Source: an uncultured delta proteobacterium (lineage in GTDB: Bacteria > Desulfobacterota > RBG-13-43-22). Taken from it: a stretch of 64,000 nt of DNA. Both the position numbers and the translations under genes were made by a program. The stretch is from the NCBI GenBank assembly GCA_963790475.1, contig CAWBOS010000015.1, positions 224,001-288,000 of the forward strand, read 5' to 3'. Within the stretch, counting starts at the first letter, position 1. Every line of letters starts with the position of its first letter. This document shows positions 42,126 to 61,505 of this stretch, piece by piece. The notes beneath the pieces are model-generated. The model saw nothing but the letters and a program-made list of their open reading frames with translations, was not told where the DNA came from and searched no databases.

Positions 42126-44109
42126 CCCATCTTCCGCAGTTAGAAAGCATGGAAGACGCGATATCAAATAGTTACGACAAGAATTAGGGCATTTTCTTCA
42201 CTACATTTTCAATAATTTTTGGTTTGTTGGGGAGCAGAATTTTCAATCTCTGAAGCAGCACTTTGAGTTCCTTTGAGGGAGTAGCCACCATTCTGAGCCG
42301 GAGGGTTCTCTCCCGCGCCGGTAGTAGCACATCCAAAGATTTCAATTCCCGCAACTCCTCCAACAGCTTTCTTGGGGCGGTACCGAGTCCCGAGGCTTTC
42401 ATCCATTGCTGGAGCGTTCGCCACATAGTCAGCGCCAAGAAGCAGACCAGGATATGAGCCTGGGTCCGTTCCTGTTTTTGATGGAAGATCGGTCGCATTC
42501 CCAGATCATGTTTCTCGGTACGGAATGAATCTTCCACTTCCGTCAGTTGGATGTAGGTATTCCATAGGACTTTCGGGTCACTTTCGGTCCAGTTGGTGCG
42601 CAGGATGTAGCTACCGCCGGTCTCCAAGGCCCACTGTTGCCGTTGTTCGTTCTTCTTGACTTCTAGGGAAAGCGGTGCGTCTTTTCCGGTACCGGTCTCT
42701 ATGACTGTAATATTGAACAACGAGGCCGCACGTTTATTTTGTTCCAGCAGTCGCCCTATTCTCCGCTCGACTTTCTGCTTGTCTCGGAGCTTGCCGGTTT
42801 CGGCCTGGCGGGCCAGGTGATCCAGTTGGCTTTCCAGTCGGGTCAAAAAGTGGTTTAGAATGGCGTTTTCTTTCTCCTTCCGGCCTTGAGACCGGCACAG
42901 GACAAAGATTTCATCCGTTCCTTCCGGCGAGCAACAGAGCTTGACCTCAACACCAGGTTGGACCGCTTCCCAGTTCTGTTCGAAAAGCTGCTGCTCAAAC
43001 TTCTTCAGCATCACTTTTGGGGTGCCGACCAAATAGCGGGCACCGACTTTGCGCATAAACTCCAGATTCTCCTCACTCACCATGCCGCGATCCATAACCC
43101 AGATCCGGTTGGCTTGGCCGTATTTGGCCTCCATCATCTGAACCATCTCTTGGGTCGTCGTGACATCCGGTCGATTGCCGTCAAAAACCTCAAAGGCTAT
43201 GGGAAAGCCCTCTCGGGTGGCCACCAGGCCGATGCAGACCTGGGGACAATCTGGACGACTGTCCCGGCTGTAACCCCTCTTGGCCTGGGCATTGCCCTTG
43301 GCGGTCCCCTCAAAATAGGTGGAGGTTATGTCATAAAACAAAAAATCAAAGCTACTGCCGAACAGTTCCCCATAACGCTCCTGAAGGTGACGGCTTAAGG
43401 CATCCTTGTGGGGAAGCAAGGCATCCAGGGCACGATAAAGCCGATCCTCATTGATCTTATAGTCGGCCACTCCCAGCAGATCGTCTAAGGCCGTCTGGCC
43501 ATACCAAAACTCGGCCATCTGTAATTCCGACGATGGGGCGCAAAAGCGTCCAAGAACTAAAATAGACGCCATGATCGACCAAGGAATCTCTTCCCGGTTG
43601 GAAGGAATATGATCTCGGCAGAACCTGGCAAGCCCCAGTTTGTTCCACAAAAACAACCCCAAATAGACATCGCCGAAGCCTCTGAGTCGCTCGACGCTTA
43701 CGCCATGGATATTGACCGTGGCCCAAGATGGGGGGTCTTCCCCCTGCTCAAACAGTTCAGGTCCAGGTAGAGGCTTTCCGGAAAGAATCCGTCCGATCTC
43801 CTCCCAACCTATCCGCTCTTCCCGATCAAGGCCAGGAAGTTTCCCTATCGTCGCCACTACTCGCTGACGGGGCCCTCGGGCAGTACGGACCGACTCAACT
43901 AAAAGCCAGCTCTCGTACTCCGCTCCACCTTTCTTTTTGGTCGCACGCCGGAGATACATAACCCCATTATCTCCGTTCCCACAGCACCTGGCAAGGGGGT
44001 GGTCTTCACTACATCCAATTTTCAAAGATCAGGACTTGAAATCATTTAACAATTCCTAACAATTCATCACGTTTTTCTTGATTTTTTCTCCAAACTGCGG
44101 AAGATGGGC
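42125..44109 (-). mobile_element. IS1634 family insertion sequence, copy 2 (1985 bp)
   Basis: Same IRs, TA on both flanks, only a few substitutions versus copy 1. Confidence 0.93.
42184..43959 (-). CDS. IS1634 family DDE transposase
   Basis: Same protein as copy 1 except one L>F change. Confidence 0.93.
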   Translation of the reverse strand: MYLRRATKKKGGAEYESWLLVESVRTARGPRQRVVATIGKLPGLDREERIGWEEIGRILSGKPLPGPELFEQGEDPPSWATVNIHGVSVERLRGFGDVYLGLFLWNKLGLARFCRDHIPSNREEIPWSIMASILVLGRFCAPSSELQMAEFWYGQTALDDLLGVADYKINEDRLYRALDALLPHKDALSRHLQERYGELFGSSFDFLFYDITSTYFEGTAKGNAQAKRGYSRDSRPDCPQVCIGLVATREGFPIAFEVFDGNRPDVTTTQEMVQMMEAKYGQANRIWVMDRGMVSEENLEFMRKVGARYLVGTPKVMLKKFEQQLFEQNWEAVQPGVEVKLCCSPEGTDEIFVLCRSQGRKEKENAILNHFLTRLESQLDHLARQAETGKLRDKQKVERRIGRLLEQNKRAASLFNITVIETGTGKDAPLSLEVKKNEQRQQWALETGGSYILRTNWTESDPKVLWNTYIQLTEVEDSFRTEKHDLGMRPIFHQKQERTQAHILVCFLALTMWRTLQQWMKASGLGTAPRKLLEELRELKSLDVLLPARERTLRLRMVATPSKELKVLLQRLKILLPNKPKIIENVVKKMP

Positions 44110-46888: not shown

Positions 46889-48670
46889 TCAACGGGCAAA
46901 ATGGGTGGCCTGACCGGCCACGATGATCCAGGTGACCAAAAACGCATTTATAAATGAACCCACAAACACATGTCCGGTTTGACGAAAGAAATAGGTCGAA
47001 ACCAGGGCTACAATAGTAAAGATCGGAAGAAACTGGAACATCACAATGGAGGCCAGATGCAAATCCGGAATGGCCAGAGTTCCCCCATTAAAGAGGGGCA
47101 TATACATGATGAAAAGAAATAGGAAGTAACCGCCGATCATGAGTACGATGTTGATCAGCATCTCCCTCCAACCGGTCAAATCGCTTCCGTCTCTCCGACC
47201 GCGCCGCAATTCACCGTGGAGCACCAGACCGGAAATCAGAAAATAAAAAGCAAAGGGGATAAGGTAAGTTAAAAACATCTTAAAATGAAGGACCGACATC
47301 GGTTTCACGGCAAAGACCCAGATGCGGAAATCCGTTTTGAAGGCCCAATCAGAAAAAGCCAGGGACAGATAAGCCCAAAAAACAACCACGATCGCCAACA
47401 GAATAGATTTCCAGAGCTTGCGTCCGGCATGTTCTTTCCAAGCGAAGCCGTAATTGACCAAGCCTCCTCCCTTTTTCTTGTTCGCGATGAAATGCCAGAG
47501 GAGAAACAAAACCAGTGAGATCGCGCCGACCGCCACGGCCCAGAACATTATAGTAGTGGTTATCTCCTGCCTCCAGAGCCAACTTTTCTTGGCAATGCCC
47601 TTCCCGTTAAAAGCCCAGGCCAGGACATACAGGGGTAGGGGAAGAAGAATAGTGATCACTGCTCCCACCCACCAGCCCCAGCCGGAGGTTGGTTTTCGTT
47701 CGGCAGGGGTTTCGTTTAATTCATCGAAAAATGGGGTTCGCATTAGACACCGGCCCACAGGGAAGAGGAGGAGGACCATTCCGATCAAAGCAATCAAGGT
47801 CCCAAATTCTTTCCAATACCAGATCTGGTTGGATGGCGGCAAGTTATTCCCACCTTTTAAGGTGGTTTGCATCCATTCAATGGCATTCCCGATGGCCTGC
47901 CTTGAAAAATGAACCCGGGGATGGATCGTGCTCGGCTGATAAAGTTTTCTGGCCGTACCGTTCTCGATCGAACCGTAGAGCTTACCGACCACCACCGGCT
48001 CGGTAGTTCCAAAAACCTTTTTGAGTTTGTCGGTATTGACGATATTAACCGGAACCGGCGAGCCCCACATAAGACCGGAAAACTCATCATATTTGGAGAA
48101 GATAAGGGCCATGTTGCGCGGAAAATCCGCGGTTCCATCCGGAGCCCCTAAAGTCCCGGTTGATGAACTGGCCAGGATCAGGGATTTATATCCGTCTTTA
48201 TTGGCAGCGGCGGCTATCACCGATGCCCAGCCACCCATGGAATGACCTTCCAGACCGATATTATTGAGATCAACGATGTCCAGGGTCCGCAAATACTTCA
48301 GGCTATCCAGACCGCCGAAACCGTTGGCAAAGGCCGGGGGATCGGAAAAACCGTGTCCCGGTTGATCAGGGGCCAGAACGACATAACCGCGTCTGGCAAA
48401 TTCTATGGCAAAACCGTCTTGGGTTTCTCGGGAGTTGATATATCCATGGGTAGCGACGATTCCGGGAGCCGGATTCTTTTTGCTCACCCCTTTTGGCACA
48501 TAAAGCAAGGCACTGACTAACTTACCGTCACCCCCCATAAACCGTAGATCCCTGACCTGAATCCCACCACTGGTCTGGATGAAATAAGCGAGCAAACCTC
48601 CACCCAGGATAAATACTAAGGCTAAAATCAATAAACTGGTCAACGGCTTCTTCTTAGCTGTTTCGTTCAT
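46889..48670 (-). CDS. Alpha/beta hydrolase with N-terminal anchor and C-terminal multi-TM domain
   Basis: HGY, GHSMGG nucleophile elbow, YDEF, about 8 C-terminal TM helices; AGGAGG RBS. Confidence 0.85.
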   Translation of the reverse strand: MNETAKKKPLTSLLILALVFILGGGLLAYFIQTSGGIQVRDLRFMGGDGKLVSALLYVPKGVSKKNPAPGIVATHGYINSRETQDGFAIEFARRGYVVLAPDQPGHGFSDPPAFANGFGGLDSLKYLRTLDIVDLNNIGLEGHSMGGWASVIAAAANKDGYKSLILASSSTGTLGAPDGTADFPRNMALIFSKYDEFSGLMWGSPVPVNIVNTDKLKKVFGTTEPVVVGKLYGSIENGTARKLYQPSTIHPRVHFSRQAIGNAIEWMQTTLKGGNNLPPSNQIWYWKEFGTLIALIGMVLLLFPVGRCLMRTPFFDELNETPAERKPTSGWGWWVGAVITILLPLPLYVLAWAFNGKGIAKKSWLWRQEITTTIMFWAVAVGAISLVLFLLWHFIANKKKGGGLVNYGFAWKEHAGRKLWKSILLAIVVVFWAYLSLAFSDWAFKTDFRIWVFAVKPMSVLHFKMFLTYLIPFAFYFLISGLVLHGELRRGRRDGSDLTGWREMLINIVLMIGGYFLFLFIMYMPLFNGGTLAIPDLHLASIVMFQFLPIFTIVALVSTYFFRQTGHVFVGSFINAFLVTWIIVAGQATHFAR

Positions 48671-48747
48671 GATGCCTCCTTAATATTAAATTGTAATAAG
48701 TGGTTGTGTTTTAACCTCCTTTCTCTTGGGACTCGATTTTATTATCC

Positions 48748-48822
48748 AAAAGAAAAAGCCCGGATAGAAACGACCACTGCCTTTAAGTGTTCATTTACTA
48801 TCAGGGCTTTCTCTTTATTCTC
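48748..48822 (-). promoter_or_regulatory. GlpP-type leader terminator/antiterminator site
   Basis: GAGAATAAAGAGAAAGCCCTGATAG...CTATCCGGGCTTTTT; paralogue at 61185-61256. Confidence 0.75.
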
Positions 48823-48978
48823 TCACCCCGAAAGTTCGAATAATGAAATTTTCTTTTAAAGAGAACTGTTATATAGAATAGCCGTACAAGTCAAGGCTTT
48901 TTTTTGAAGAAAACTTTTTCGAATTGACAGCTTTTTCTCTTTACCGTATCGGCGTCAAGCCAGATTTTACTCCTTTTC

Positions 48979-49548
48979 CTAAAGATCAAAGAGATGGGAT
49001 GCGGTAGTGGAAACCCCGACTGCCCCGGAAGTCAGGATCTCCCGGATCTCTTCCTTCTCGGTGATCAACCCTCCGGCGATGATCGGGATTGAAGTGAGCA
49101 TCCTTATTTTTTTCATAATCTTGGGGAGGATCAAACCGGGAAGGATCTCTACAGCGTCAGGTTTTGACTTCTCCACAGTGCCAAGCCCGCCCACCAGAGA
49201 TTCCGAATCTAAAACAAATACCCTTTGAATAGCAAAAAGCCCTTCTTTTTGGGCACTTTTGATGAGATTGCCGCGGGTGGTGATGATTCCGTTTATTTGA
49301 CTTTCTTTAGCCAGAAATCGGATCCCCGGAGCATCTTTCCCGATTCCCTTTATGAGATCAATATCGACCAAAACCAGCTTCTGATGGAGTTTTGCCTGTC
49401 GCACGATTTTTGGGAGATCGAAAATGGTTCCACCCAGGATAAAAAGAACATTGGTGTGTTCCAAACTTTGAAATCGAAGATTTTCAATGTCCCTGATGGC
49501 TGCTATCACCGGTCTGCTTTTCAGAGCCGACAAAAAATCCATAGGCAA
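48979..49548 (-). CDS. glpP: Glycerol-3-phosphate-responsive antiterminator
   Basis: DLIKG, GIITT, IQRVF.LDS, EILPG, PIIAGGLI, GAVGVST. Confidence 0.92.
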   Translation of the reverse strand: MPMDFLSALKSRPVIAAIRDIENLRFQSLEHTNVLFILGGTIFDLPKIVRQAKLHQKLVLVDIDLIKGIGKDAPGIRFLAKESQINGIITTRGNLIKSAQKEGLFAIQRVFVLDSESLVGGLGTVEKSKPDAVEILPGLILPKIMKKIRMLTSIPIIAGGLITEKEEIREILTSGAVGVSTTASHLFDL

Positions 49549-49681
49549 TCTCCCTTCCAGTATTTTTGATGCTCCATATCAGATCGTTAGGAGGTGTCCT
49601 TACTTTCACCGCTAAAGCGGCTTCCGTATTAAAGCTTAACAACTATTGTTGCTCTTTGTTGTCCTTTACTGGCGGTATCCT

Positions 49682-51163
49682 TCATTCTATCCAGTCGAAA
49701 GTCCGCGAGACGGCCTTTTTCCATCCGCCATAGAGTCCTTCCCGTTTCGAGGCCTCCATTTGGGGGTTCCATTCTTTGTCTCTGCCCCAGTTGAGACGCA
49801 ATTCATCCAAATTTTTCCAAAAGCCAACGGCCAGCCCGGCGGCATAAGCGGCGCCCAAGGCCGTGGTTTCCGCCACCTGGGGACGGATAACCGGCACGTT
49901 CAGCATATCCGCCTGAAATTGCATCAACAGTTCGTTGAAGACCATACCACCGTCCACCTTGAGGGCCTTCAGCCGGACGCCGGAATCCTTTTCCATGGCG
50001 TCAAGTACTTCTCGGGTCTGGTAGGCGGTGGCTTCCAGCACGGCCCGCGCAATGTGCCCCTTGTTGATATAGCGGGTCAGGCCTACGATAACCCCCCGGG
50101 CGTCCGATCTCCAGTAAGGAGCGAACAGTCCGGAAAAGGCCGGGACGAAATAAATTCCGCCGTTGTCTTCCACCGTACCGGCCAACGCTTCAACGTCGGC
50201 GGATTTGGCAACCAGGCCCAGGTTGTCGCGCAACCACTGGACCAGGGCCCCGGCAATCGCGATTGATCCTTCCAGGGCATAGACGGCCTTCTGAGGACCG
50301 ATCTTGTAACCGACAGTGGTCAGCAGTCCGCTGTTGCTGGGCACCGGGAGTTCGCCCATGTTTAACAGCATGAAACAGCCGGTCCCATAAGTGTTCTTGG
50401 CCTCGCCGGGATTAAAACAGGTCTGCCCGAATAGGGCCGCTTGCTGGTCGCCCAGATCACCCCCCACCGGCACGCCCCGAAGAATATCCTTCGCCTCCCC
50501 ATAGACTTCCGACGATGAACGAATCTTCGGAAGCATGGCCCGGGGAATATTCAGCAACTGCAGGATTTCTTCATCCCAGTCAAGACTGTTCAAGTTCATC
50601 AGCAGAGTGCGCGAGGCATTAGTTACATCGGTGATGTGAACGCCGGTCAGATTCCAGATAAACCAGGTATCAATATTTCCGAAAAGCAATTCGCCGTTCT
50701 CGGCCTTTTTTTGGGCACCCGGGACATGGTCCAGGATCCATTTTATTTTAGGCCCGGAGAAATAGGTGGCCAACGGCAGGCCGGTTTTGCCACGCAGACG
50801 GTCCTGGCCGCCATGCCTGGCCAGCTCCTGGCAGATGAGGTCGGTGCGGGTGTCCTGCCAGACAATGGCATTATAAACCGGAACGCCGGTAGACTTCTCC
50901 CAGACCACCGTTGTTTCACGCTGGTTGGTCACCCCGACGGCCGCAATATCGCTGAGGGAGACACCGATTTTTGTCAAGGCTTCGCGGATCACTTCCCGGG
51001 TGTTGTTCCATATCTCCAGGGGATCGTGTTCCACCCAGCCCGGTTGAGGAAATATCTGCCGGTGCTCTTTCTGCGCCAACCCGGCGACCCGGCCGCTGTG
51101 ATCAAAGAGGATGAACCGGTTGCTGGTCGTTCCCAGATCCACTGCACCGATGTATTTGGCCAT
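49682..51163 (-). CDS. glpK: Glycerol kinase
   Basis: [41 protein letters not shown]. Confidence 0.96.
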
Positions 51164-51194
51164 GGTTTGCTCTCCTAAAAAAAAAATATAGTCT

Positions 51195-51263
51195 GGAGTT
51201 ATGAGTTCGGAGTAAATAGTTCGGAGCAAAACCTAATGACTCTGAACTCCGAACACCGAACTC
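51195..51263. repeat. Inverted arrays of degenerate heptamers
   Basis: GAGTTCG-like units followed by CCGAACT-like units. Confidence 0.55.
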
Positions 51264-51267
51264 GCAT

Positions 51268-52875
51268 TTACTGATTTTGAAGATGCTCCGCCAGATAGGT
51301 ATAGATATCCTTTACGCTCATATCAATATCTTCTCCCAGTTTAGCACAACTCAGATGAATCCGGCATTTGGGACAGGCGGTAATCAGTTCTTTGGCGCCG
51401 GTTTGCTGCGCTTCTAATAGACGTTCGGTCTGGATGGCCTTGGAACAACTGGAGCATTCCGTCCAGGCGCTTGTCCCGCAGCAAAGGGCATTTTCCCGGT
51501 TCCGCTCCATCTCTATGAGTTCTGTTCCGGGAACAAGTTTTAATAATTGCCTTGGCGGTTCATAAATCCCGGCCCCCCGTCCCAGTCGGCAGGAGTCCTG
51601 ATAGGTGATTACCCCCCCGGAAGACGGTCGCAGCTCCAATCCGGCTTTCGGTATTTCTCGAGCGAAAAATTCGGTCAGATGAACCACTTCAAAGGGCAGT
51701 TTCCCAAAGTATTTAGGGTAAGAATACTTAAAAGTCGCGTACCCCTCCGGGCAACTGAACAAAACGGTTTTGGCTCCGGAGGCTTTAATGACCTCCAGAT
51801 TCCATAAGGCCAACTCGCGGAAGGTATCCTCTTCCCCGCACCAGAGGGCATCGTGTCCGCAGCACCTTTCGTCATTGCTGATGACCGGCTCTATTCCAAT
51901 TCGGTTCAGCAAGGTCAGTGCACTCCGGGCGCTGTCTAAAGGTAAAATATTCAAATAGCGAAAGGTGATATCGAAATACGGCAGGCAGCCGACAAAAAAG
52001 AAATAGTCCCCCTTTGATTTGAAATGACCTGCCTTTTCCGCCCAGGTTGTTCTTTTCTGCGAAAGGGGATGTCTATGCAGACGGGCAATGACCTGTTGAA
52101 TCCCATGATGGCTTTCCATGGGGACATTCCCGGTTTTCCGAGCCCGGTTTCGAAAAGTACGGTTGAATTCCGCGATATCGATCCGGGCCGGACAGCGCGT
52201 ATTGCATTGGCCACACCCCAGACAGGACCAGACCTCGCGGCTCTGCAGAATCTCGTCATCGAGCCCCATAGCGGTTTGATTAATGATCCGCTTGGGGGAG
52301 AAGCGGGGATTTTCACGGTTCACCGGACAAGTCGCGTTACAACTGCTGCATTCCATACAAGCGGCAATCTGCTCTTTGCTCAGTTGGGGCGGCCCGTTTT
52401 CAAACACCTGGTAATCCGGAGGCACTACCCCGGAGAGATCCCATTTTCTATAATCTTGAAGGGGTTTTTCTTTCAGCCCTTGGAGAAATTGAGTAAAATC
52501 CTGGATCTCCCTGGCGAACTCGGCCCCTTCCGAGGCGGAAATCCATTTGACCCTGAGCCGACGTTCTTCAATTCCCAAAAGCCGCAGATACCCCTGGGTT
52601 TCTTCGATCACCCGTTGGCATTTCACATTACCTTCCAGGTAATGGCAATCGCCGATGTGTCAGCCGGCGACCAGGACGCCCTGGGCACCTTCGGCAAAGG
52701 CCTTCAGAAGGAAGCCGGAATGAATCCTTCCCGTGCACATCAATCGAATCAAGCGCACATTCGGTGGATACTGGATTCGTGAAATCCCCGCCAGATCGGC
52801 CCCGGCATAGGCGCACCAGTGACAGACAAAGGCGAGAATTTCAGGCGGATCGGTTAAAGGCATGCATGGCTCCAA
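51268..52875 (-). CDS. Selenocysteine-containing MvhD/FlpD fused to HdrD/GlpC-type (2x4Fe-4S + 2xCCG) protein
   Basis: C.WC.YAGAD, MCTGR, GVLVAG-TGA-HIGDCHY..GN reads in frame into CxxCxxCxxxCP x2 and two CCG motifs. Confidence 0.9.
52626..52644 (-). promoter_or_regulatory. Candidate bacterial SECIS hairpin
   Basis: CATTACC-TGGAA-GGTAATG, separated from the in-frame TGA (52660-52662) by 15 nt. Confidence 0.65.
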
Positions 52876-52934
52876 AATTCATTCTTAATTTTTCTTTTCC
52901 GAACGAATCGAAATTGAAAACTTTAACAACCTTA

Positions 52935-53136
52935 TTCACCGCAAAGGCGCGAAGGACGCAAAGAAGGATTATTATTGATTGCCGGTAAGGGGCCGGCAAT
53001 CAATAAGCTTCGCCTGCACCTTCCGGTAATTATTTGGCCGGGGGCCGATGTCCCGCCTTGGCGGGATTCAATGCCGCCTCTCACGGGATTGAACAATATA
53101 GATGGTTTTCTCTGCGTTCTTTGCGTCTGCGGTGAA
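52935..53136. repeat. Nested palindromic element 1
   Basis: Outer imperfect IR, 14-bp hairpin (loop TAAGGGG), short central hairpin, 10-bp hairpin (loop CCTCTCA). Confidence 0.8.
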
Positions 53137-53149
53137 AAACTCTTCTCAA

Positions 53150-56100
53150 TCACGAACGAAAGGCCCTGATCATGCCCTCAATCTGATCGTCCTGAAAATG
53201 AGCCGGGGAGACCGCGCCCGTGGGGCAGACCACATTACAGGCCCCGCACCCCGTGCACAAACTTTCATTGACCACAGCCCTTTTCCGTCCCTCCTCATCT
53301 GTCTTGGACTTTTATGGCCTCAAACAAACAGGTCTTCTCGCATTCTCCGCAGGCCCGGCAGAGATCCATATCCACCTGGGCAATCATCCCCTCGGCAGTC
53401 ATCATTTTTTTGGACAGAACCGTCATGGCCCTGGAGACGGCCCCTCGGGCCTGGGTGATCGATTCAGAGGCGAATTTGGGACCTTGAGCCAGACCACACA
53501 AATAAAAACCCGGTTTGATGAAATCAAGGGGCCTGAGTTTCGGATGGGCCTCCATGAAAAAACCATCCTGATCCAGGGGGAGCCGCATAGTTTCCGCCAG
53601 CTTCTGACCTTCAGGGTTTGGACGAATAGCTGAGTTCAAAACCAAAAGGTCCGCTTCCAACCGGACAGGCATCCGAAGTTGTTGGTCAAAAACGGTCAAG
53701 CTTAGCCTTTCCTCTTCGATGCTCACTTCCGGTTTTTGATCTCTCACATACTGGAAAAAGCGGACCCCCTTGATCCGGGCCTGTCGATAATAGGACTCGC
53801 GAAGGCCGAAGGTGCGCAGGTCACGATATAAAATAGAAACCTGCACCCCCGGATTCAATGATTTCAGTTTCAAGCTGTTCTTCACTGCCCCGGTGCAGCA
53901 CACACGGCTGCAATAAAGATGATCCGGTTCCCGGGAGCCCACACACTGAATCATCACCACCCGCGAATATTTTTTAATTTCCTCCGGTCTCAAGGCCAGA
54001 AGGGATTCAAAAGTCTTGCGGGTGATGACCCGCGGGTGACTTCCGTAATGATATTCATCCGGTTCATATTCCCGGCCGCCGACGGCGACTATGGTCACCC
54101 CATGAACGATTTCCCTGGATTCATCCCCGGCCAATATCGTCGTTGTAAAATGACCGCAGGCGCCCTTGGTCTCGACCACCTGGGCATTGGTGAAAACAGT
54201 AATCAAAGGTTCCTTGTCAACTTTACTGATCAGGAGTTCCACATACTCGGCCGGATTGGCCCCATCTTCGGTGAAATAAAGGTCACGTGCATTCCCCCCT
54301 AACTCATCGGTCCTCTCCACTAACACCGCCTCGTATCCCTGTTCGGCGATGGTTAAGGCGGCGGTCAGCCCGGCCAGACCCCCACCGACTATCAAAGCCC
54401 TTTGAACGACCGGATAGGTCGTTTCCGGCAAGGGGTTCAACAGTCGGGACCGGGCGATGGACATCCGCACCAGATCTTTGGCCTTTTGAGTGGCAGCCTT
54501 CGGATCCAAACGATGTACCCAGGAATCATGTTCGCGAATATTGGCCAGGTCGAAAAGATAGGGATTGAGTCCCGCCTGCCTCAAGGTGCTCTGAAAAAGC
54601 GGTTCATGGGTCCGCGGCGTGCAGGCCGCGGCCACGATACGATTAAGCCCGTGTTCGGCGATGGCTTTCCTGATTTCGTTCTGTTGATCGGTGGAACAGG
54701 CGAACATGCAATCCGCGGCATAGACGACATCAGGAAGACCTCGGGCATACTCAGCCACCGCTTTGACATCCACCACACCGGCAATGTTGATTCCGCAGTG
54801 GCAGATAAAGACACCAATTCGCGGTTTTTCATGGGACACATCTCTTTCCTTCGGTAGAGGGCCGGCTTCAATCATCATTTTGCCTCTGACCTCGGAAAGC
54901 AGGGTCATCGCCTTGGCCGCCGCAGCGCTCCCCTGCTGCACCGAATCGGGAATGTCTTTAGGACCCTGTAAACTCCCGCAAACATAAATCCCTTCCCGGG
55001 AGGTATTGACCATATCCAGGGGATCGGAAACACAAAAGCCGTGGTCATCGAGTTCCAGGCCCATCTTAAGCGCCAGGCTTTTTGCCGAGGGATGGGCACA
55101 GAGGCCGACCGAAAGGACAACCATATCATAAGTCTCTTCCTGAATAAGACGGCTGGAATCTACGTAAGTCAGGTTCAAGGTGTCCTCTTCCGGATTAGGG
55201 ACAATACGAGAGATCATCGACCGGACAAATCGCACTTTATGTTCGGTCTCCGATCTCTCATAGAAACGATCAAATCCTTTTCCGTAGGCCCGAAGGTCGT
55301 TATAGAAAATAGTGGTTTCGGTCCCGGACTCCTGTTCCTTGGTGATCAAGGCCTGTTTTACCGCCGACATGCAGCATACCGAAGAACAATAGTCTTGTCC
55401 GATATGGCTGTCTCTGGAGCCCACGCATTGAATCCAGGCCATTCGCCGGGGTTTCTTTCCATCGGAAATCCGTTGAATACGACCGCCGTAGGGACCGGCG
55501 GCGGATAGTATTCTTTCATATTCGAGACTGGTAATCACATTGGGCCAGCGGCCATAACCGTATTCCGCTTTGCGCCGGGCATCAAAGGGTTCTACGCCCC
55601 CGGCCAGAATAATGGCCCCGGTTTTCAAAAGGATGGTTTCATCCTCCTGTTCAAAATCAACAGCTTTGGTTGGACATATTTTTTCACAGATACGGCATTG
55701 ACCTTCGGTGAAGTAGCGGCAAAACCGCTTATCAATGGTATAAACCAGGGGGACCGCCTGGGGATAGGGAATGGAAATGGCCCGGCGATGATTCAAGCCC
55801 AGATTGAAAGAATCGGGGACTTTCATCGGGCACTTTTCCGCACAAAGGCCGCAGCCGATACATTTTTCAGGATCGACGGCCCGGGCCTTTTTTTTAAGGG
55901 ATAACTGAAATCGCCCGGCATGGCCTTCCAACCCAAGCACCTCGGTAAAGGCCAGAATTTCAATATTGGGATTTTGGGTCAGCTCAACCAGTTTAGGACC
56001 CATCATGCAGGCCGCACAATCATCGGTAGGAAAGGTCTTGTCCAGTTGGGCCATGATGCCGCCCACATTGGGCTTCTCCTCCACCAGATGGACTTTAAAA

Positions 56101-56192
56101 CCCGAGTTGGCGGCATCCAGGGTCGCTTGAATACCGGCGATGCCCCCGCCGATGACAGTGATGGAGCCGATTTTTTTGGAATCCTTATTCAA
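53150..56192 (-). CDS. hdrA: Heterodisulfide reductase subunit A-like flavoprotein (long form); frameshift near 53290
   Basis: Two GxGxxG, LDKTFPT.DC, IQCVGSR..YCS.VCC twice, CHCG.NI, CTPRTHE; last CTGCGAC..VCP in another frame to 53150. Confidence 0.92.
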
Positions 56193-56265
56193 ACCAGTCC
56201 TCTTTTAAATACCTTTTTACCTGATCCGAAAAAGTCGAAGCTAATGAAAGCTGAATCAAACCGTC

Positions 56266-56507
56266 CTCTCGCCCGCTCCCCTCGGTCACTTGAGCACACA
56301 GAGATCGCAAAGAAAACCTTCCTATCTGGTCTGATTTCCTGAGAGGGGAAATCAGACCACCATTCTCGGCCTATGGCACCTGAAATTCCGGCCAGTCTTC
56401 TTTGGAGAAAACATCTTTTCGGCTATAGCCGAATGAGACGTCTTGAACAGAAGCGGCCTCTCCCCGCTTCCGTTCTAACTCTGTGTACTCTGGGCGCTCT
56501 GTGAGAG
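56266..56507. repeat. Nested palindromic element 2
   Basis: Outer IR (CACAGAG/CTCTGTG type), 13-bp hairpin (loop TGAGAGG), central palindrome, 12-bp hairpin (loop CCTCTCC). Confidence 0.8.
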
Positions 56508-56519
56508 ATAAAATTTTTT

Positions 56520-57386
56520 TCATGAAGGACCTAACAGCCCCAATTCACGCAAGAGGGGCAATGGATCGGTAATATGCTTGGAAAGCCCTTTTTTCACGCC
56601 CTCCACCCCTAAGGCCAATCCGATCAACTCGGTAAAATAATAAATAGGAAGGGGTGATTCTTCTCTCGAAGCACTTCCCGCCCTTTCAAGGTGCATATCC
56701 AGATTGGCCTGACACATCTGGCAGGAAACCATAACTCCCTGGGCGCCGACCCGCCGAGCCATATCCAAAATTTTTTCCACTAGACTCAGCTCAACACGCC
56801 TCAAAGAAAGGGCCTGTGAGGCACCGCAGCAATCCGTTTTATAGGGCCAGGGGATTGGCGTCGCCCCCAGATTGGCGACAATGCGGTCCAGGGCTTGGGG
56901 ATCTTCGTAATCTGTAGCCCCGGTGATCTCCGGCGGCCGGTTGGCCATGCAACCGTAATAACAGACTACCTTTAACCCCTCGAGGGGCTTCCGGATTTTT
57001 TTGGCCACGGCTTCCAACATCTTTTCCGTGGCAAAAAAATTGGCCAGATCCCAGATGGCAGGAACCGAATGCGGCAACGTTATTCCCAAGCGATTATTTT
57101 GATCCTGCTGTAAGGTGTAAGAGGCCCTCTTCAAACGATTGAAACACATGGGACAGGGAACCAGCATTTCTGAATGGGGCATTTCCGCTGCCAAGGTCAA
57201 GGTCCTGGCGGCCAGGGCAACGCTGACCCGGCGATCAAGGCTGTGGGCTGCAGTGGCCCCGCAGCAGTTCCAATCCGGAATTTCATCCAGTTCAATGTCC
57301 AGAAAATCGCAAAGACCGGCGACGGATTCGGCATAATCTTTGGCCGTTCCTTTGAGAGAACATCCCGGATAATAAGTAAATTTCAT
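56520..57386 (-). CDS. hdrB: Heterodisulfide reductase subunit B
   Basis: YYPGCS, DWNCCGA, YYGC, CCGA, CQMCQANLD. Confidence 0.93.
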   Translation of the reverse strand: MKFTYYPGCSLKGTAKDYAESVAGLCDFLDIELDEIPDWNCCGATAAHSLDRRVSVALAARTLTLAAEMPHSEMLVPCPMCFNRLKRASYTLQQDQNNRLGITLPHSVPAIWDLANFFATEKMLEAVAKKIRKPLEGLKVVCYYGCMANRPPEITGATDYEDPQALDRIVANLGATPIPWPYKTDCCGASQALSLRRVELSLVEKILDMARRVGAQGVMVSCQMCQANLDMHLERAGSASREESPLPIYYFTELIGLALGVEGVKKGLSKHITDPLPLLRELGLLGPS

Positions 57387-57391
57387 CAGAT

Positions 57392-57970
57392 TTATTTCCC
57401 CGGACTGCTTTTACTAAAAATTCGGTTTATCTCTTTTTTGTTTTTGTTCTTTGAAGGCCGAAAGGGCATTCGGCCTTTGGAAAACAACTTCCATCCCAAT
57501 CCAAGTTCCGCCACCAGGGTGCGGTCTTTCCACTTACCGAGGAGCTGACCGCTTTTCAGCAGATAGGTCGGCAGGAGGGTAGTTTCAAACACCCGGCCCT
57601 GTTTCTTGATTTGTTTTAAAAAGCTTTGATGCCATTGTAAAACCTGAGGCTCCGGGCAGGGAATATTTTCCCGAACGGCTATTTCCTTGAGTTGATCCAT
57701 GAGTTCGGCGATCCGAACCTCATTAGGACAGCGGGTGGTACAGGTTTCACAAGCCGCGCACACCCAGATGGTTTTGCAGTTCAGCACTCTTTCCCGCTGA
57801 CCCAGGATCACCAGGCGGATAACTTCATCGGGAAATAAGTCCATGGCAAAAGCCACCGGACAGCCGTTGGTACACTTACGGCATTGGAAGCAGGCCCCGG
57901 CTTGAAACGGCCCTTCTTTTTCCAAGGTTTCTAATAATCGATAATCTGGCGATAAGGTTTCCTGCACCAT
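57392..57970 (-). CDS. hdrC: Heterodisulfide reductase subunit C
   Basis: CFQCRKCTNGCP, IWVCAACETCTTRCP. Confidence 0.93.
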   Translation of the reverse strand: MVQETLSPDYRLLETLEKEGPFQAGACFQCRKCTNGCPVAFAMDLFPDEVIRLVILGQRERVLNCKTIWVCAACETCTTRCPNEVRIAELMDQLKEIAVRENIPCPEPQVLQWHQSFLKQIKKQGRVFETTLLPTYLLKSGQLLGKWKDRTLVAELGLGWKLFSKGRMPFRPSKNKNKKEINRIFSKSSPGK

Positions 57971-58127
57971 ACTGATTCCATGTTATTTAATTAATAAATC
58001 ATAAACATAATTTTTGCCGCGACGAGACCGGCGAATGCAGACCAAACGACCGATTTTTGCCGGACAATTGTCGTCCAGCAAAATTATGTGTGGGTCCGTG
58101 TCAAAAAAATACTTCTTAAAAAATATA

Positions 58128-59426
58128 TTAATGGTTCTCTCTTTTCACAATTTCGATAAAAGCCTTGACCGCCCCCAAGGCCGTGGCCACAGCCAGCCCG
58201 GTGCCGCATTTCTCCCTTTTCCAATCCTGATGAGCCAGAATGGAACCGGCTGCAAACAGGGCAGAAAAGGCCGGTGTTCCATGACGATTCAGCGGACGGA
58301 AATGTTCGTCGATCTCCACTCCGGCCTGGTTTATCGGATGTCCCTGTCGGTCAAAAAAATCATCCCGGTGCCACATTTTTCTGCTCTCGGGTTGGTAAAC
58401 ATGGAGATTGAATATCGTTTCCCGAATAAATTTTCGATCAGCGGCCAACCCTCCGCCGAAAAATCGGCCCGTGGCCAGGATGACCCCAGAGGAAATAATC
58501 GTCTGCTTTCCGGTGGTCCTGTCGATTCCGAGCTCAAATGCTCCACCCGATCCCTGTCGGGCTTCAACCACTTTTTCTTGGGAAAAATAGCAGGGCCTTA
58601 TTTCACGCAGCCCCCGTTCAAAGGCCTCTTTCAGACGAAGCCCGGGAATAGAAGGGGGCATGGTCGGAATTTCAAAGACCGGAACGCCGAGCAACTCCGT
58701 TAAATCAGAAATCACCTTTGAGGATTGATACAATCCTAAAACGGCAGGAAGTCCGACGCATTTTGCTCCTTTAATCTCCGGCCGTATCACTCGGGCCAGC
58801 TTCTCCCGATTGCCCCCCAGAACCAGGGCATTGGCCATATGTTCCGGCAATACTTCCTCCCGGTGTCCTTTTCCAGGAAACATAACCCGGGCAGTTCGCA
58901 ACCCCGGCCATCGGTCCTTCAAATTTTCAGCAATCAAACCGGCACTGAACCCTTTGAGTCCTTTGAATTCGACGATCAGGCAGGGGCGCTTCTGCGCCAA
59001 GGCCTCCACCCCTGCCCACATAGTCCGAGGCAGGCAATAGGTTGTCTTGACCGTTCCCAAAGGGGTAACGATTCGGACATTGCCAGCGGGATTCCTGGAA
59101 TAGGGAAGCCCTACCCCGTCCAAAAAATCCAATAATTCGTCAAGGGCTTCTTGAATTTCTTTTTTTGGTGTCCGGGCATAGGGGTGTCCGGGTACATCCC
59201 TGGCCAAGGTTTCAATTCCGGCCCAGGGATCATCCCCTTGCTTCCCTTCTCTTATCGGATGAACGCTGAATAAATCAAAAAAACCGCTGGCTAATCCGAT
59301 TTCACTGGTGTGGCCCACCTGGGCCACTGAAAGACCCCTGTTAGCGGCGAAGAGAGTAGCCGCCATACCGGCCATACCGGCTCCGATGATGGTTAAATCG
59401 ACTTTTATATGTTCTGCTTCGGACAT
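58128..59426 (-). CDS. glpB: Anaerobic glycerol-3-phosphate dehydrogenase subunit B
   Basis: GAGMAG, HPY, PAVLG, EIPTMPPSIPGLRL, LATGRFFGGGL, G.G.A..T. Confidence 0.92.
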   Translation of the reverse strand: MSEAEHIKVDLTIIGAGMAGMAATLFAANRGLSVAQVGHTSEIGLASGFFDLFSVHPIREGKQGDDPWAGIETLARDVPGHPYARTPKKEIQEALDELLDFLDGVGLPYSRNPAGNVRIVTPLGTVKTTYCLPRTMWAGVEALAQKRPCLIVEFKGLKGFSAGLIAENLKDRWPGLRTARVMFPGKGHREEVLPEHMANALVLGGNREKLARVIRPEIKGAKCVGLPAVLGLYQSSKVISDLTELLGVPVFEIPTMPPSIPGLRLKEAFERGLREIRPCYFSQEKVVEARQGSGGAFELGIDRTTGKQTIISSGVILATGRFFGGGLAADRKFIRETIFNLHVYQPESRKMWHRDDFFDRQGHPINQAGVEIDEHFRPLNRHGTPAFSALFAAGSILAHQDWKREKCGTGLAVATALGAVKAFIEIVKRENH

Positions 59427-59528
59427 CTTATGAAAATTTCTAGCATTTATCTTCAGTTTGAAAATAGAGCATTCAAGGCTATGGCCTCTAATCTGAATTC
59501 TGACTCCTGGATTCTGTATTCTATAATT

Positions 59529-61109
59529 TCACTCCTCCAATTCTAATCCGAACAACCCGCAGTGCATGGCCTCCAACAGTTCGGCCTGTTGAAGCTGTTG
59601 GCCCCAGAGGATTGGACGCAGCCCTTTCCACCGGCTGCGGACAAATTCCCTGAGGCTGTCCAAGGACTGTCCGACATCAGACTCCCCCCGATCAAACAGG
59701 TAGGCGGTCAGACGGGGCCCGCAAAAAGCACCCTGGCAAGGGCCCTTGCCGATTCGGCTGCGCAATCCGATTCCCTGAAGGTCTGCTTTTTCCCCCTGGT
59801 TACGGATGGAACCGGCAATCGAATCAACGGCACTCCTGGGAACCATCTCACACTCACAGAGAATAATATCCTCCGGATCATGCCCTTTCATCCATATCTT
59901 GGGAGCCGAGGCGGGTTCAGTCCACCGGCCGGGCTGGGATGCCGGTAACGGTTCGGTTCGGGTAAGACAGGGTTTTGAGATTCCCAGGTGTTGACAAACC
60001 AGGTCGGCTGTCTTTTCGGCCATTAGTCGATAAGTGGTCAGCTTTCCCCCGCTGATGGTGATAAAGTTCTCGACACCCTGTGGGCCGTGATCCATGAGGG
60101 TAAAACCACGGCTGACTTTGCGATCATCCCCCTCTCCCGGTAAACCAATTAACGGCCGCACACCGCAATAAGCCCGAATATAACGGGTTGTCTCCAAGGC
60201 CGGGATCATGGCCCCGGCATCTTCCACCATCAAATCGATTTCTTCAACAGTCGGATAGGCCTTTTCCGGACTTTTTATTCGAATAGAGGTGGTGCCCAAA
60301 ATGGAAACCGTCCCCCCCGGAACCAATATGTCGGCATTAGAAGGAGGTCGTAAACGGTTTATAACCTTTCGGGCCAATCGATCATGGGTAATTAACAGAC
60401 TCCCTTTGGAAAAGAGAACCGGAATGGGAATTCCTGCCAGACCGGCCACCAGACCGGCCCAGGCACCGGCGGCATTAATGACCACGTCGGCCTCGACCAG
60501 AATCTTCTCCTCCGTTCGGGTGTTTTGTAATTGAACAGACTTTATTTTGGATGCGCCGATATCAAAAGCTCGAACCTCGGTGTGACTTAACAGGCGGGAG
60601 CCAAGCTGCTGAGCCTGGGCCATATTGTCCAGAGATAATCTAAAGGGATCGATGGCGGCATCCTGGACCTTATAAGCGGCGACGATCAGTTCTGAAAGGA
60701 CCGGCTCCAATTGACGGGCTTCTTTCAAATCAAGCGCTTGAACGGGAACACCGGAACGGTCGCACATTCCCGGAAAATCGGCGACAAAATGCTCGTCATC
60801 TCCCTGAACGGCCACGAACAAACCACCGGTATCTTCGACACATTGGGCGGTAAGGTTTTTCAACAACTTTCCTTCTTCCCGGCACTCCCTGGCCGCCTCA
60901 GGATCGGAGAAGGCATAGCGGGCTCCGCTATGCAAAAGTCCATGGTTTCCCCCTGAAGCACCGGCATTGATGTCTTTTTTTTCAACCACAAGGCACTGAA
61001 CACCGCGCAGGGCCAGGTCCCTCGCCAGACCGGTACCGGTAGCCCCTCCCCCGATGATGAGCGCCTGGGTCTTTATCAGACGATTCTTTGAACTAAGACG
61101 ATCTTCCAC
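59529..61109 (-). CDS. glpA: Anaerobic glycerol-3-phosphate dehydrogenase subunit A (likely GTG start near 61109)
   Basis: GGGATG, NHGLLHSGARY, GGKLTTYRLMAE, C-terminal CECE...G.CQG.FC. Confidence 0.93.
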   Translation of the reverse strand: MEDRLSSKNRLIKTQALIIGGGATGTGLARDLALRGVQCLVVEKKDINAGASGGNHGLLHSGARYAFSDPEAARECREEGKLLKNLTAQCVEDTGGLFVAVQGDDEHFVADFPGMCDRSGVPVQALDLKEARQLEPVLSELIVAAYKVQDAAIDPFRLSLDNMAQAQQLGSRLLSHTEVRAFDIGASKIKSVQLQNTRTEEKILVEADVVINAAGAWAGLVAGLAGIPIPVLFSKGSLLITHDRLARKVINRLRPPSNADILVPGGTVSILGTTSIRIKSPEKAYPTVEEIDLMVEDAGAMIPALETTRYIRAYCGVRPLIGLPGEGDDRKVSRGFTLMDHGPQGVENFITISGGKLTTYRLMAEKTADLVCQHLGISKPCLTRTEPLPASQPGRWTEPASAPKIWMKGHDPEDIILCECEMVPRSAVDSIAGSIRNQGEKADLQGIGLRSRIGKGPCQGAFCGPRLTAYLFDRGESDVGQSLDSLREFVRSRWKGLRPILWGQQLQQAELLEAMHCGLFGLELEE

Positions 61110-61184
61110 TACCACCCCAAAAAATAGAAAAATATTTCTCGAAAAATTTCCCGCATCGAGTATTCTTGAAGATCTTGGATCAAC

Positions 61185-61256
61185 AAAAAAGCCCTGATGG
61201 ATGACGAGCATACCCTCGGAACGCTTATCACCTATCAGGGCTTACTCTTTATTCTC
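61185..61256 (-). promoter_or_regulatory. GlpP-type leader terminator upstream of glpA
   Basis: GAGAATAAAGAGTAAGCCCTGATAG...CCATCAGGGCTTTTTT. Confidence 0.78.
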
Positions 61257-61300
61257 GTGCCCCAATACATCGTTAAATAAAATTTCCTTTTACTGCATGA

Positions 61301-61329
61301 AATGTAAGTAAAATTGACTTTCATGTCAA
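61301..61329 (-). promoter_or_regulatory. Sigma70 promoter of the glp-hdr operon
   Basis: TTGACA-17 bp-TACATT upstream of the leader. Confidence 0.6.
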
Positions 61330-61386: not shown

Positions 61387-61417
61387 AAAAAAAGGGTTAG
61401 AGGAAACCTCTAACCCT
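61387..61417 (-). terminator. Intrinsic terminator after the tRNA
   Basis: AGGGTTAGAGG-ttt-CCTCTAACCCT followed by a T-run. Confidence 0.8.
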
Positions 61418-61428
61418 GTGTGTGTTTT

Positions 61429-61505
<77 letters not shown>

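Follow-up and report, generated by a model that had tools for sequence, protein, structure and literature searches.

Glycerol-3-phosphate dehydrogenase genes joined to a soluble Hdr module: a putative Glp-Hdr complex in an uncultured member of the Thermodesulfobacteriota

The anaerobic glycerol-3-phosphate (G3P) dehydrogenase GlpABC normally feeds quinones. In the FlxABCD-HdrABC system of Desulfovibrio, a bacterial Hdr module is served by an MvhD-like adaptor, FlxD, and takes its electrons from a donor other than a hydrogenase, namely NADH at about -320 mV; DsrC has been proposed as the acceptor. How sulfate reducers lead electrons from donors near -190 mV, such as lactate and G3P, to sulfite reduction without loss to menaquinone is an open question. 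In this study, we analyzed a 64,000-nucleotide stretch of DNA from an uncultured delta proteobacterium (assembly GCA_963790475.1, contig CAWBOS010000015.1, positions 224,001 to 288,000; hereafter the window), in which the genes for GlpA and GlpB stand in one row with those of a soluble Hdr module. This arrangement suggests that electrons from glycerol enter anaerobic energy metabolism by a route not described so far.

A connection between GlpAB and Hdr-type proteins has a precedent. In Desulfobacterium autotrophicum HRM2, glpAB is clustered with the gene for an Hdr-type CCG protein, HdrF, and the portion of the report available to us puts forward a transfer of electrons from GlpAB to Hdr (PMC2702500). 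FngABC of Pyrococcus furiosus, which has a GlpA-family subunit, oxidizes G3P in a flavin-based three-partner reaction, and the same paper proposes that GlpABC bifurcates (PMC13689815). In its accessible portion, that paper brings in Hdr solely as a further bifurcating family and as the first source of the CCG-type cluster, leaves Hdr-linked GlpAB unmentioned and contains no word beginning with "Desulf". An earlier note on the window, made from its letters alone, had known of no characterized example of such a system. This agrees with our full-text literature search, in which no paper linking GlpAB with HdrA or MvhD was found; subscription journals and supplements lay outside its scope.

We conclude, with moderate confidence, that the gene products form a soluble complex of the composition GlpAB-HdrD/MvhD-HdrA-HdrCB, the acceptor and the ferredoxin role of which we infer.

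Gene content of the operon

The eight genes glpA-glpB-hdrC-hdrB-hdrA-mvhD::hdrD-glpK-glpP (48979..61211) are all co-oriented on the minus strand in the list of open reading frames (ORFs) of the window. The unit is bounded by a tRNA gene and a terminator-like hairpin on one side and by the next copy of a leader element on the other. Families were called from Pfam and NCBIfam profile matches judged against their cut-offs, which were the equivalog cut-offs in the case of NCBIfam. The gene order in the earlier note was borne out by the ORFs and by the family matches. In the anatomy of the locus, however, that note had missed the tandem nature of HdrA, a surplus base in hdrA and a TGA selenocysteine (Sec) codon in mvhD::hdrD. 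Judging from its gene content, the region is best explained as an operon for glycerol catabolism, and its host as an uncultured member of the Thermodesulfobacteriota that reduces sulfite or sulfate.

GlpA, GlpB and GlpK passed the equivalog cut-offs, whereas every Hdr-like protein missed them. The glpA ORF (59529..61211), encoding subunit A of the anaerobic G3P dehydrogenase, matched TIGR03377 with 570.5 bits (cut-off 552.8) and Pfam DAO at 3.3e-48; since its first ATG falls within the leader hairpin, the true start is probably near 61109-61115. Subunit B is encoded by glpB (58128..59426), which matched NF003725 with 584.7 bits (cut-off 345), TIGR03378 with 220.9 bits (cut-off 174.15) and Pfam FAD_binding_2 at 1.2e-44. 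The glycerol kinase gene glpK (49682..51163), the ORF of which is open as far as 51229, matched TIGR01311 with 743.2 bits (cut-off 590.35) together with Pfam FGGY_N and FGGY_C. Each of glpA, glpB, glpK and glpP is present in a single copy in the genome.

The earlier note had reported no separate glpC alongside these genes and had left room for a GlpC encoded elsewhere. In a profile search of the whole 6.34-Mb genome, none of the 23 TIGR03379 matches exceeded the cut-off. The HdrD part of MvhD::HdrD was also well below the GlpC cut-offs (81.9 bits against 278 for PRK11168, and 50.2 against 279.9 for TIGR03379). A Kyte-Doolittle hydropathy scan with 19-residue windows, which is a crude test, gave no convincing transmembrane segment, in line with the absence of a membrane anchor reported in that note.

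The hdrC-like gene (57392..57970) encodes a protein with two [4Fe-4S] cluster motifs of the Fer4 dicluster families (Pfam Fer4_8 and Fer4_17); it scored 60 bits against TIGR03290 (cut-off 160) and 57.5 bits against qmoC, both below cut-off. The product of the hdrB-like gene (56520..57386) has two CCG domains, each with the complete pattern C..CCG..CxxC (two stretches in the Pfam CCG match), and both sets of the ten cysteine ligands are visible in its sequence. Its best NCBIfam match was MFR SdhE with 152.8 bits, which is below the cut-off, and the equivalog cut-offs were likewise missed.

The hdrA gene (53150..56192) is a tandem, or double, hdrA rather than a single one. It matched NCBIfam HdrA2 with 933.9 bits in 3 stretches, against a cut-off of 1100, and PDB entry 5odc_A at 2.2e-193 in 2 stretches. 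Residues 10-440 correspond to the FAD and inserted-ferredoxin part of HdrA, and the protein from about residue 450 onward to a whole HdrA. The frame as called, of 965 amino acids, ends at 53295, and the reading resumes in the +1 frame as far as 53150, so that there is an apparent break at 53295-53302. All 12 hdrA orthologs are continuous across this site, and the contigs of all three runs with cover (X1, X3 and X4, from three studies) have one base fewer at 53301/53302. The break is thus explained by one base too many in this assembly. A pseudogene and a programmed frameshift were considered and rejected on the same two observations.

The mvhD::hdrD gene (51268..52863) encodes an MvhD/FlpD domain (3e-48), a Fer4 domain and two CCG domains (Pfam) in one protein. 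The MvhD/FlpD adaptor domain matched PF02662 with 163.3 bits (cut-off 22.3), and one of its ligand positions is Sec. The alignment of orthologs indicates that this gene encodes a selenoprotein, since its frame needs the in-frame TGA at 52660..52662 (motif VAG-U-HIGDCHY) to be read through. The codon at this position is TGA in 11 of 12 orthologs and TGC (Cys) in the remaining one (locus L010), and selB is present in the genome (390.6 bits, cut-off 242.25). A Sec-containing MvhD is already known from Desulfococcus multivorans, according to the part of that report available to us (PMC5109826). A candidate SECIS (selenocysteine insertion sequence) hairpin, CAUUACC-loop-GGUAAUG, lies 15 nt past the TGA (52626..52644, minus strand); its fold z is only -1.44, and its conservation is confounded with that of the coding sequence.

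The CCG domains of HdrD differ from those of HdrB in one respect. The first domain of HdrD ends in CPEG instead of CxxC, the G being invariant in 24 of 24 sequences, so that one Cys ligand is missing; the cysteines of both domains are invariant at every other position. HdrB, unlike HdrD, keeps all cysteine ligands and both CxxC motifs. A Cys-to-Gly change at the equivalent ligand is described for SaEMO, the non-cubane clusters of which were read as electron-transfer centers in the accessible part of the preprint (10.64898/2026.08.18.745454).

MvhD and HdrD form one polypeptide in the window and in six loci of other species with the same gene direction, and are encoded by adjacent separate genes in loci with the convergent order described below. 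Among the best 120 homologs in the databases, many that carry PF02662 are only 447-452 amino acids long. The fusion appears to be under-annotated because gene callers start such proteins after the Sec TGA; in practical terms, the selenoprotein MvhD::HdrD is cut at its TGA. In-frame TGA codons were also seen in MvhD paralogs of the same genome (C15:541402, C6:161475, C13:145535 and C10:34552), where they lie in the first Cys motif (CxxU) or occupy the position known from the window.

Recurrence of the linkage and predicted docking of GlpB

The order to which the organism belongs was represented by 21 genomes, 14 of them from the genus of the window. GlpB was found in 7 of the 21, all within the genus. 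The same 7 of the 14 genus genomes hold an ortholog of HdrD (68-100% identity), and the other 7 have neither GlpB nor an HdrD ortholog; since these genomes are kin, the pattern is not a statistical test. The two genes are on one contig in 6 of the 7 genomes. The closest public loci are from metagenome-assembled genomes labelled Thermodesulfobacteriota or Deltaproteobacteria.

Among 80 GlpB loci of other species, 7 have glpAB colinear with an Hdr module (L009-L014, and L057, the contig of which ends after the start of hdrC). In 9 others the two are convergent; six of these are complete (L019, L025, L028, L044, L046 and L054), two are cut (L027 and L039) and one is fragmentary (L040). In four loci (L070, L071, L073 and L080), the genes behind glpAB encode an HdrC-like membrane protein and, separately, an HdrB-like protein. 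With the window included, the GlpB tree has 79 rows, comprising 8 colinear, 9 convergent and the 4 with the membrane pair. In this tree, which was built by FastTree only, all linked rows except L057 fall in one clade of 44 rows with a support of 93; L057 is on a long branch and its placement is unsure. Judged from gene order, the pairing of glpAB with Hdr is more than chance, because it recurs in other species in two gene orders. In the synteny check proposed in the earlier note, the linkage thus recurs, but most glpAB loci of the Desulfobacterota are not linked to Hdr and have no adjacent Fe-S subunit.

One locus bears on the partner of GlpAB. In all 13 full-length linked loci hdrA is kept, and it is also kept in genome G009 (locus L009; 96% complete), which has retained glpAB-hdrA-mvhD::hdrD-glpK and lost the linked hdrCB. 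The best HdrB match in that genome is 51% identical, versus 74-82% in four sister genomes.

Two side results concern the dehydrogenase subunits of other genomes. A fusion of GlpB to an Fe-S domain was considered and rejected, the long open frames being read-through in high-GC DNA. A second, distant GlpA-like gene (36-37% identity) was seen downstream of glpB at L039:12549-13637, L040:11378-12454 and L047:4205-5329; in the first two of these loci, it separates glpB from the convergent hdrD.

The earlier note had suggested structure prediction as a check of the complex. We predicted the complex of GlpB with residues 20-391 of HdrD in three runs, together with 3 controls. The ipSAE values were 0.79, 0.80 and 0.80, and the best control reached 0.00. 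The runs gave 47-60 contacts with at least 96% agreement, and the pLDDT of the partner was 88 in all three. Of 80 solved complexes, 58 reached the mark used here, as did 2 of 110 mismatched pairs; these counts are rough for custom alignments. In the predicted interface, HdrD contributes both cubane motifs (residues 32-46 and 83-87), and GlpB contributes residues 186-205, 232-234 and 257-270, many of which are invariant in the GlpB alignment. A search for solved structures of GlpB relatives gave no hits, and the prediction is therefore not the recall of a known complex. In the model, GlpB thus sits on the two-[4Fe-4S] domain of HdrD.

Electron route and competing explanations

On the proposed mechanism, GlpK would form G3P and GlpAB would oxidize it. 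With no quinone-linked GlpC, GlpB would dock on the two-[4Fe-4S] domain of HdrD in the Sec-containing MvhD::HdrD. Electrons would then pass from the clusters of HdrD to the [2Fe-2S] domain of MvhD and on to the flavin of the tandem HdrA, and from there through HdrC to the canonical CCG site of HdrB. HdrB would reduce a cytoplasmic disulfide or trisulfide, most likely that of DsrC. The earlier note had asked whether dsrC occurs in the genome; it does, as two dsrC-family genes above cut-off, together with dsrA. The combination of the G009 deletion, the complex prediction with its interface and the cysteine ligands of HdrD versus HdrB favours the route from GlpAB via HdrD and MvhD to HdrA, with HdrB as the catalytic disulfide site.

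A ferredoxin-type arm of HdrA would couple a third carrier, namely ferredoxin here and NAD(P) in relatives with a GltD/NfnB-like insert in HdrA. The Glp-linked HdrA of L010 has such an insert in frame (Fer4_20 and Pyr_redox_2; about 1.4 kb, L010:13743-15178). The insert lies in the N-terminal half of the tandem HdrA, and that of L010 is the only one translated. A gap of the same size is found at the same HdrA site in L019, L094, L096, L098-L100 and L102, and in the genome of the window itself at C10:30578-32001. Since the insert of L010 is GltD/NfnB-like and the gap of L019 is of the same size, NAD(P) may be the third partner in variants of these two types.

If the complex exists, the third arm would probably take part in ferredoxin-assisted or uncoupled flow to the disulfide; a G3P-driven bifurcation to a high-potential DsrC-type acceptor and to ferredoxin or NAD(P) has, on the same premise, somewhat less than an even chance. 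Without that premise, we regard it as unlikely that GlpAB-(MvhD::HdrD)-HdrAA-HdrCB (AA denoting the tandem) bifurcates with G3P at -190 mV as the donor, a DsrC trisulfide-type acceptor at HdrB and ferredoxin or NAD(P) as the second acceptor. The potentials of G3P/dihydroxyacetone phosphate (DHAP) and ferredoxin are -190 mV and about -450 mV, respectively, in the part of the source available to us (PMC13689815). Bifurcation would therefore need an acceptor near +70 mV under standard-state conditions. If the G3P/DHAP ratio is high and part of the ferredoxin is reduced, the required potential would fall to roughly -50 to 0 mV, and a menaquinol-reducible DsrC trisulfide might qualify as such an acceptor. 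Otherwise, ferredoxin may serve as a co-donor, or the flow to the disulfide may be uncoupled.

The high acceptor potential just mentioned is one of several points that weigh against the proposed complex. Most of the others concern its specificity for Glp. Of the 79 GlpB rows, 30 lack Hdr in a downstream stretch of 6 kb or more, and another 28 offer too little sequence for a verdict. GlpB occurs in 64 of the 401 genomes sampled from the phylum and an HdrD-like gene in 38; beyond the genus, only G161 has both, and there they are on different contigs. Six genomes (G004, G156, G347, G353, G376 and G399) have an HdrD-like gene at 57-61% identity and no GlpB. This gene is in the module proper in G004, G353, G376 and G399. 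It has a different context in G156 and G347, where inspection of the ORF starts by eye pointed to acetyl-CoA-synthase-like and 2-oxoacid-oxidoreductase-like genes, respectively; the module of G001 is followed by formate-dehydrogenase-like genes, again by eye. HdrD-like genes at 46-61% identity are mostly found in hdrC-hdrB-hdrAA-mvhD-hdrD-hdrAA'-mvhD' modules without glpAB. Since hdrC-hdrB-hdrAA-mvhD-hdrD occurs without any GlpB, the Hdr module is not Glp-specific; by gene content, it is a generic module of the Desulfobacterota, to which GlpAB is an add-on in few lineages. The Glp-linked forms have glpAB or glpK beside hdrD in place of the second hdrAA'-mvhD' of the generic form.

Other points concern transcription and docking. 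In the 9 convergent loci, hdr and glpAB are unable to share one transcript, so co-transcription of the two is not universal. In the window, a strong hairpin is predicted by folding in every larger spacer. The complex predictor also passes close cousins of a true partner, and HdrC and HdrB, encoded directly after glpB, are a candidate alternative docking partner for GlpB. The unit proposed in the earlier note, soluble and with a GlpC-like CCG protein joined to HdrA via MvhD, is supported in silico by the fusion, the predicted docking, the co-occurrence in the genus and G009; the module also occurs without glpAB, and co-transcription is not general. As a separate observation, large generic hdrC-hdrB-hdrAA-mvhD-hdrD-hdrAA'-mvhD' clusters are present in other Desulfobacterota (L093-L103).

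It is worth noting that there are other possible interpretations. HdrD might simply play the part of GlpC, so that GlpAB and HdrD would form a soluble GlpABC-like enzyme, electrons would leave the CCG site of HdrD for a thiol/disulfide carrier or for menaquinone at the surface of the membrane, and HdrA and HdrCB would be generic and without coupling. GlpC models indeed fit HdrD better than HdrC (81.9 versus 35.6 bits for PRK11168), GlpB is predicted to dock on HdrD, the CCG cysteines of HdrD are invariant except at the CPEG position, and electrons at -190 mV would run downhill to either a disulfide or a quinone without coupling. On the other hand, HdrD is covalently fused to MvhD, a known adaptor to HdrA; hdrA is kept in 13 of 13 full-length linked loci and even in G009, which lacks the linked hdrCB; and the hydropathy scan gave no membrane segment. 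We therefore consider this explanation rather unlikely, while it survives better than those that follow.

The proposed complex also has to be weighed against a reversed arrangement, in which HdrC and HdrB act as a second, split GlpC-like unit, a partner of GlpAB that the earlier note had overlooked. Electrons from G3P would then enter at the high-potential arm and confurcate with reduced ferredoxin at the flavin of HdrA, with the exit via MvhD::HdrD to an acceptor near -320 mV. In favour of this, glpA-glpB-hdrC-hdrB has the order of glpABC, four loci encode a membrane HdrC-like and an HdrB-like protein after glpAB, and -190 mV suits a high-potential branch. The same logic applies in FngABC, where G3P and reduced ferredoxin together drive NAD reduction, in the portion of the paper accessible to us (PMC13689815). 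However, G009 has lost its linked hdrCB and kept the rest, the prediction puts GlpB on HdrD, and the full catalytic cysteine set is in HdrB and not in HdrD. These facts make the reversed arrangement improbable.

That there is no direct functional link, a generic Hdr module having landed by glpAB in a few lineages with the partner of GlpAB being an HdrD-like or HdrF-like protein encoded elsewhere, could draw on the at least 8 other tandem-HdrA and MvhD loci and many HdrD-like genes of this genome, on the glpAB loci of most Desulfobacterota with no adjacent Fe-S subunit and on the dispersed repeats in the spacers, but is very improbable in view of the same orthologous Hdr type always recurring in two gene orders, the exact match of presence and absence in the genus (7 with both, 7 with neither), the bracketing of the hdr genes by glp genes within one leader-delimited unit and the GlpB-HdrD prediction that passed the mark.

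Leader element, flanking features and comparison with known systems

A leader element, GGGGCAYGAGA..AGAGNAAGCCCTGATAG, followed by a hairpin and a U6 run (the leader terminator), lies upstream of glpA (61172..61278, minus strand; fold z = -3.18). Genome search and alignment gave a second copy at 48742..48844 (minus strand), upstream of an alpha/beta-hydrolase gene; these two, before glpA and after glpP, are the only true copies in the genome. The element is also present upstream of glpA in five loci of other species (L009, L010, L011, L012 and L057). In the alignment of 7 copies, 1 of the 22 predicted pairs is compensatory. An Rfam scan assigned no family to the element; only the tRNA passed the threshold, and three other matches were noise (E 0.057 to 0.93). 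The glpP gene (48979..49548) belongs to the family of G3P-responsive antiterminators (Pfam PF04309, G3P_antiterm; 1.5e-58, 197.5 bits, cut-off 27), and a leader terminator of hairpin and U6 stands ahead of both glpA and the hydrolase gene, as in a GlpP system. The element is a candidate target of GlpP, that is, a putative GlpP-dependent attenuator. The alpha/beta-hydrolase gene (46889..48670, minus strand) encodes 593 amino acids with a long hydrophobic C-terminal part (Pfam Abhydrolase_1, 5.6e-11). It probably shares the regulon of the operon, and its product may release glycerol from lipids. In L104, an ORF whose N-terminus resembles, by eye and without alignment, that of the hydrolase lies beside glpAB.

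A promoter-like site, TTGACA-17-TACATT (61301..61329, minus strand), agrees with the hexamers at 10 of 12 positions. Across the region, the number of such sites is that expected by chance (10 found, 10.1 expected), and so its position alone is suggestive. Before it lie a tRNA-Met gene (61429..61505) and, between the two, a terminator-like hairpin with a T-run (61393..61417). The hairpins of three spacers were considered as operon-specific regulators and rejected: blastn showed them to be dispersed repeats, with 51 hit rows in the genome for the hdrA-mvhD spacer, 10 for glpA-glpB and 9 for hdrD-glpK, each count including the query itself. The hdrA-mvhD spacer holds a palindromic repeat with a 14-bp stem (52935..53013, minus strand; blastn and fold), and the repeats of the other two spacers are shorter. 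A DDE transposase gene of an insertion sequence is located at 42184-44025 (minus strand), about 5 kb past the operon.

If the proposed complex is real, the Hdr-type complexes would gain a new class of donor, and glycerol electrons a cytoplasmic path to DsrC. The complex would also bear on a 2026 proposal, as given in the available part of that paper, that GlpA-family enzymes take part in electron bifurcation (PMC13689815). Should the complex bifurcate, Hdr complexes would for the first time include one with an organic donor of high potential, and the recently proposed Glp/Fng bifurcating family and the Hdr family would be united in one machine.

The locus resembles several known systems without matching any of them. 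GlpA and GlpB are alike at the equivalog level to those of Escherichia coli GlpABC. Here, however, no protein is at the GlpC cut-offs, the GlpC-like unit is fused to MvhD beside HdrA, and the proteins show no sign of membrane or quinone linkage in the crude hydropathy scan. According to the accessible text of the paper on FngABC, two of its subunits, FngB and FngC, are not related to GlpB, GlpC or Hdr (PMC13689815). HdrF of D. autotrophicum HRM2 is a membrane protein of up to six helices, and its cluster is without HdrA and MvhD in the available portion of the source (PMC2702500), whereas the module of the window appears to be soluble and includes both. HdrL of the same organism, an HdrA/glutamate-synthase fusion described in that portion, is similar to the Glp-linked HdrA of L010 with its insert, but the HdrA of the window has no such insert.

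With MvhADG-HdrABC of methanogens (PDB 5odc and related entries), the window shares homologs of HdrA, HdrB, HdrC and MvhD, the last being the adaptor between the donor module and HdrA there. It differs in that there is no hydrogenase, HdrA is tandem, MvhD is fused to an HdrD-like protein and all four homologs are below the equivalog cut-offs; moreover, the host is a sulfite reducer that we take to be without coenzyme M/coenzyme B chemistry, no search for the corresponding genes having been made. In comparison with FlxABCD-HdrABC, the donor in the window would be G3P at -190 mV, with its electrons entering via GlpAB and the CCG protein.

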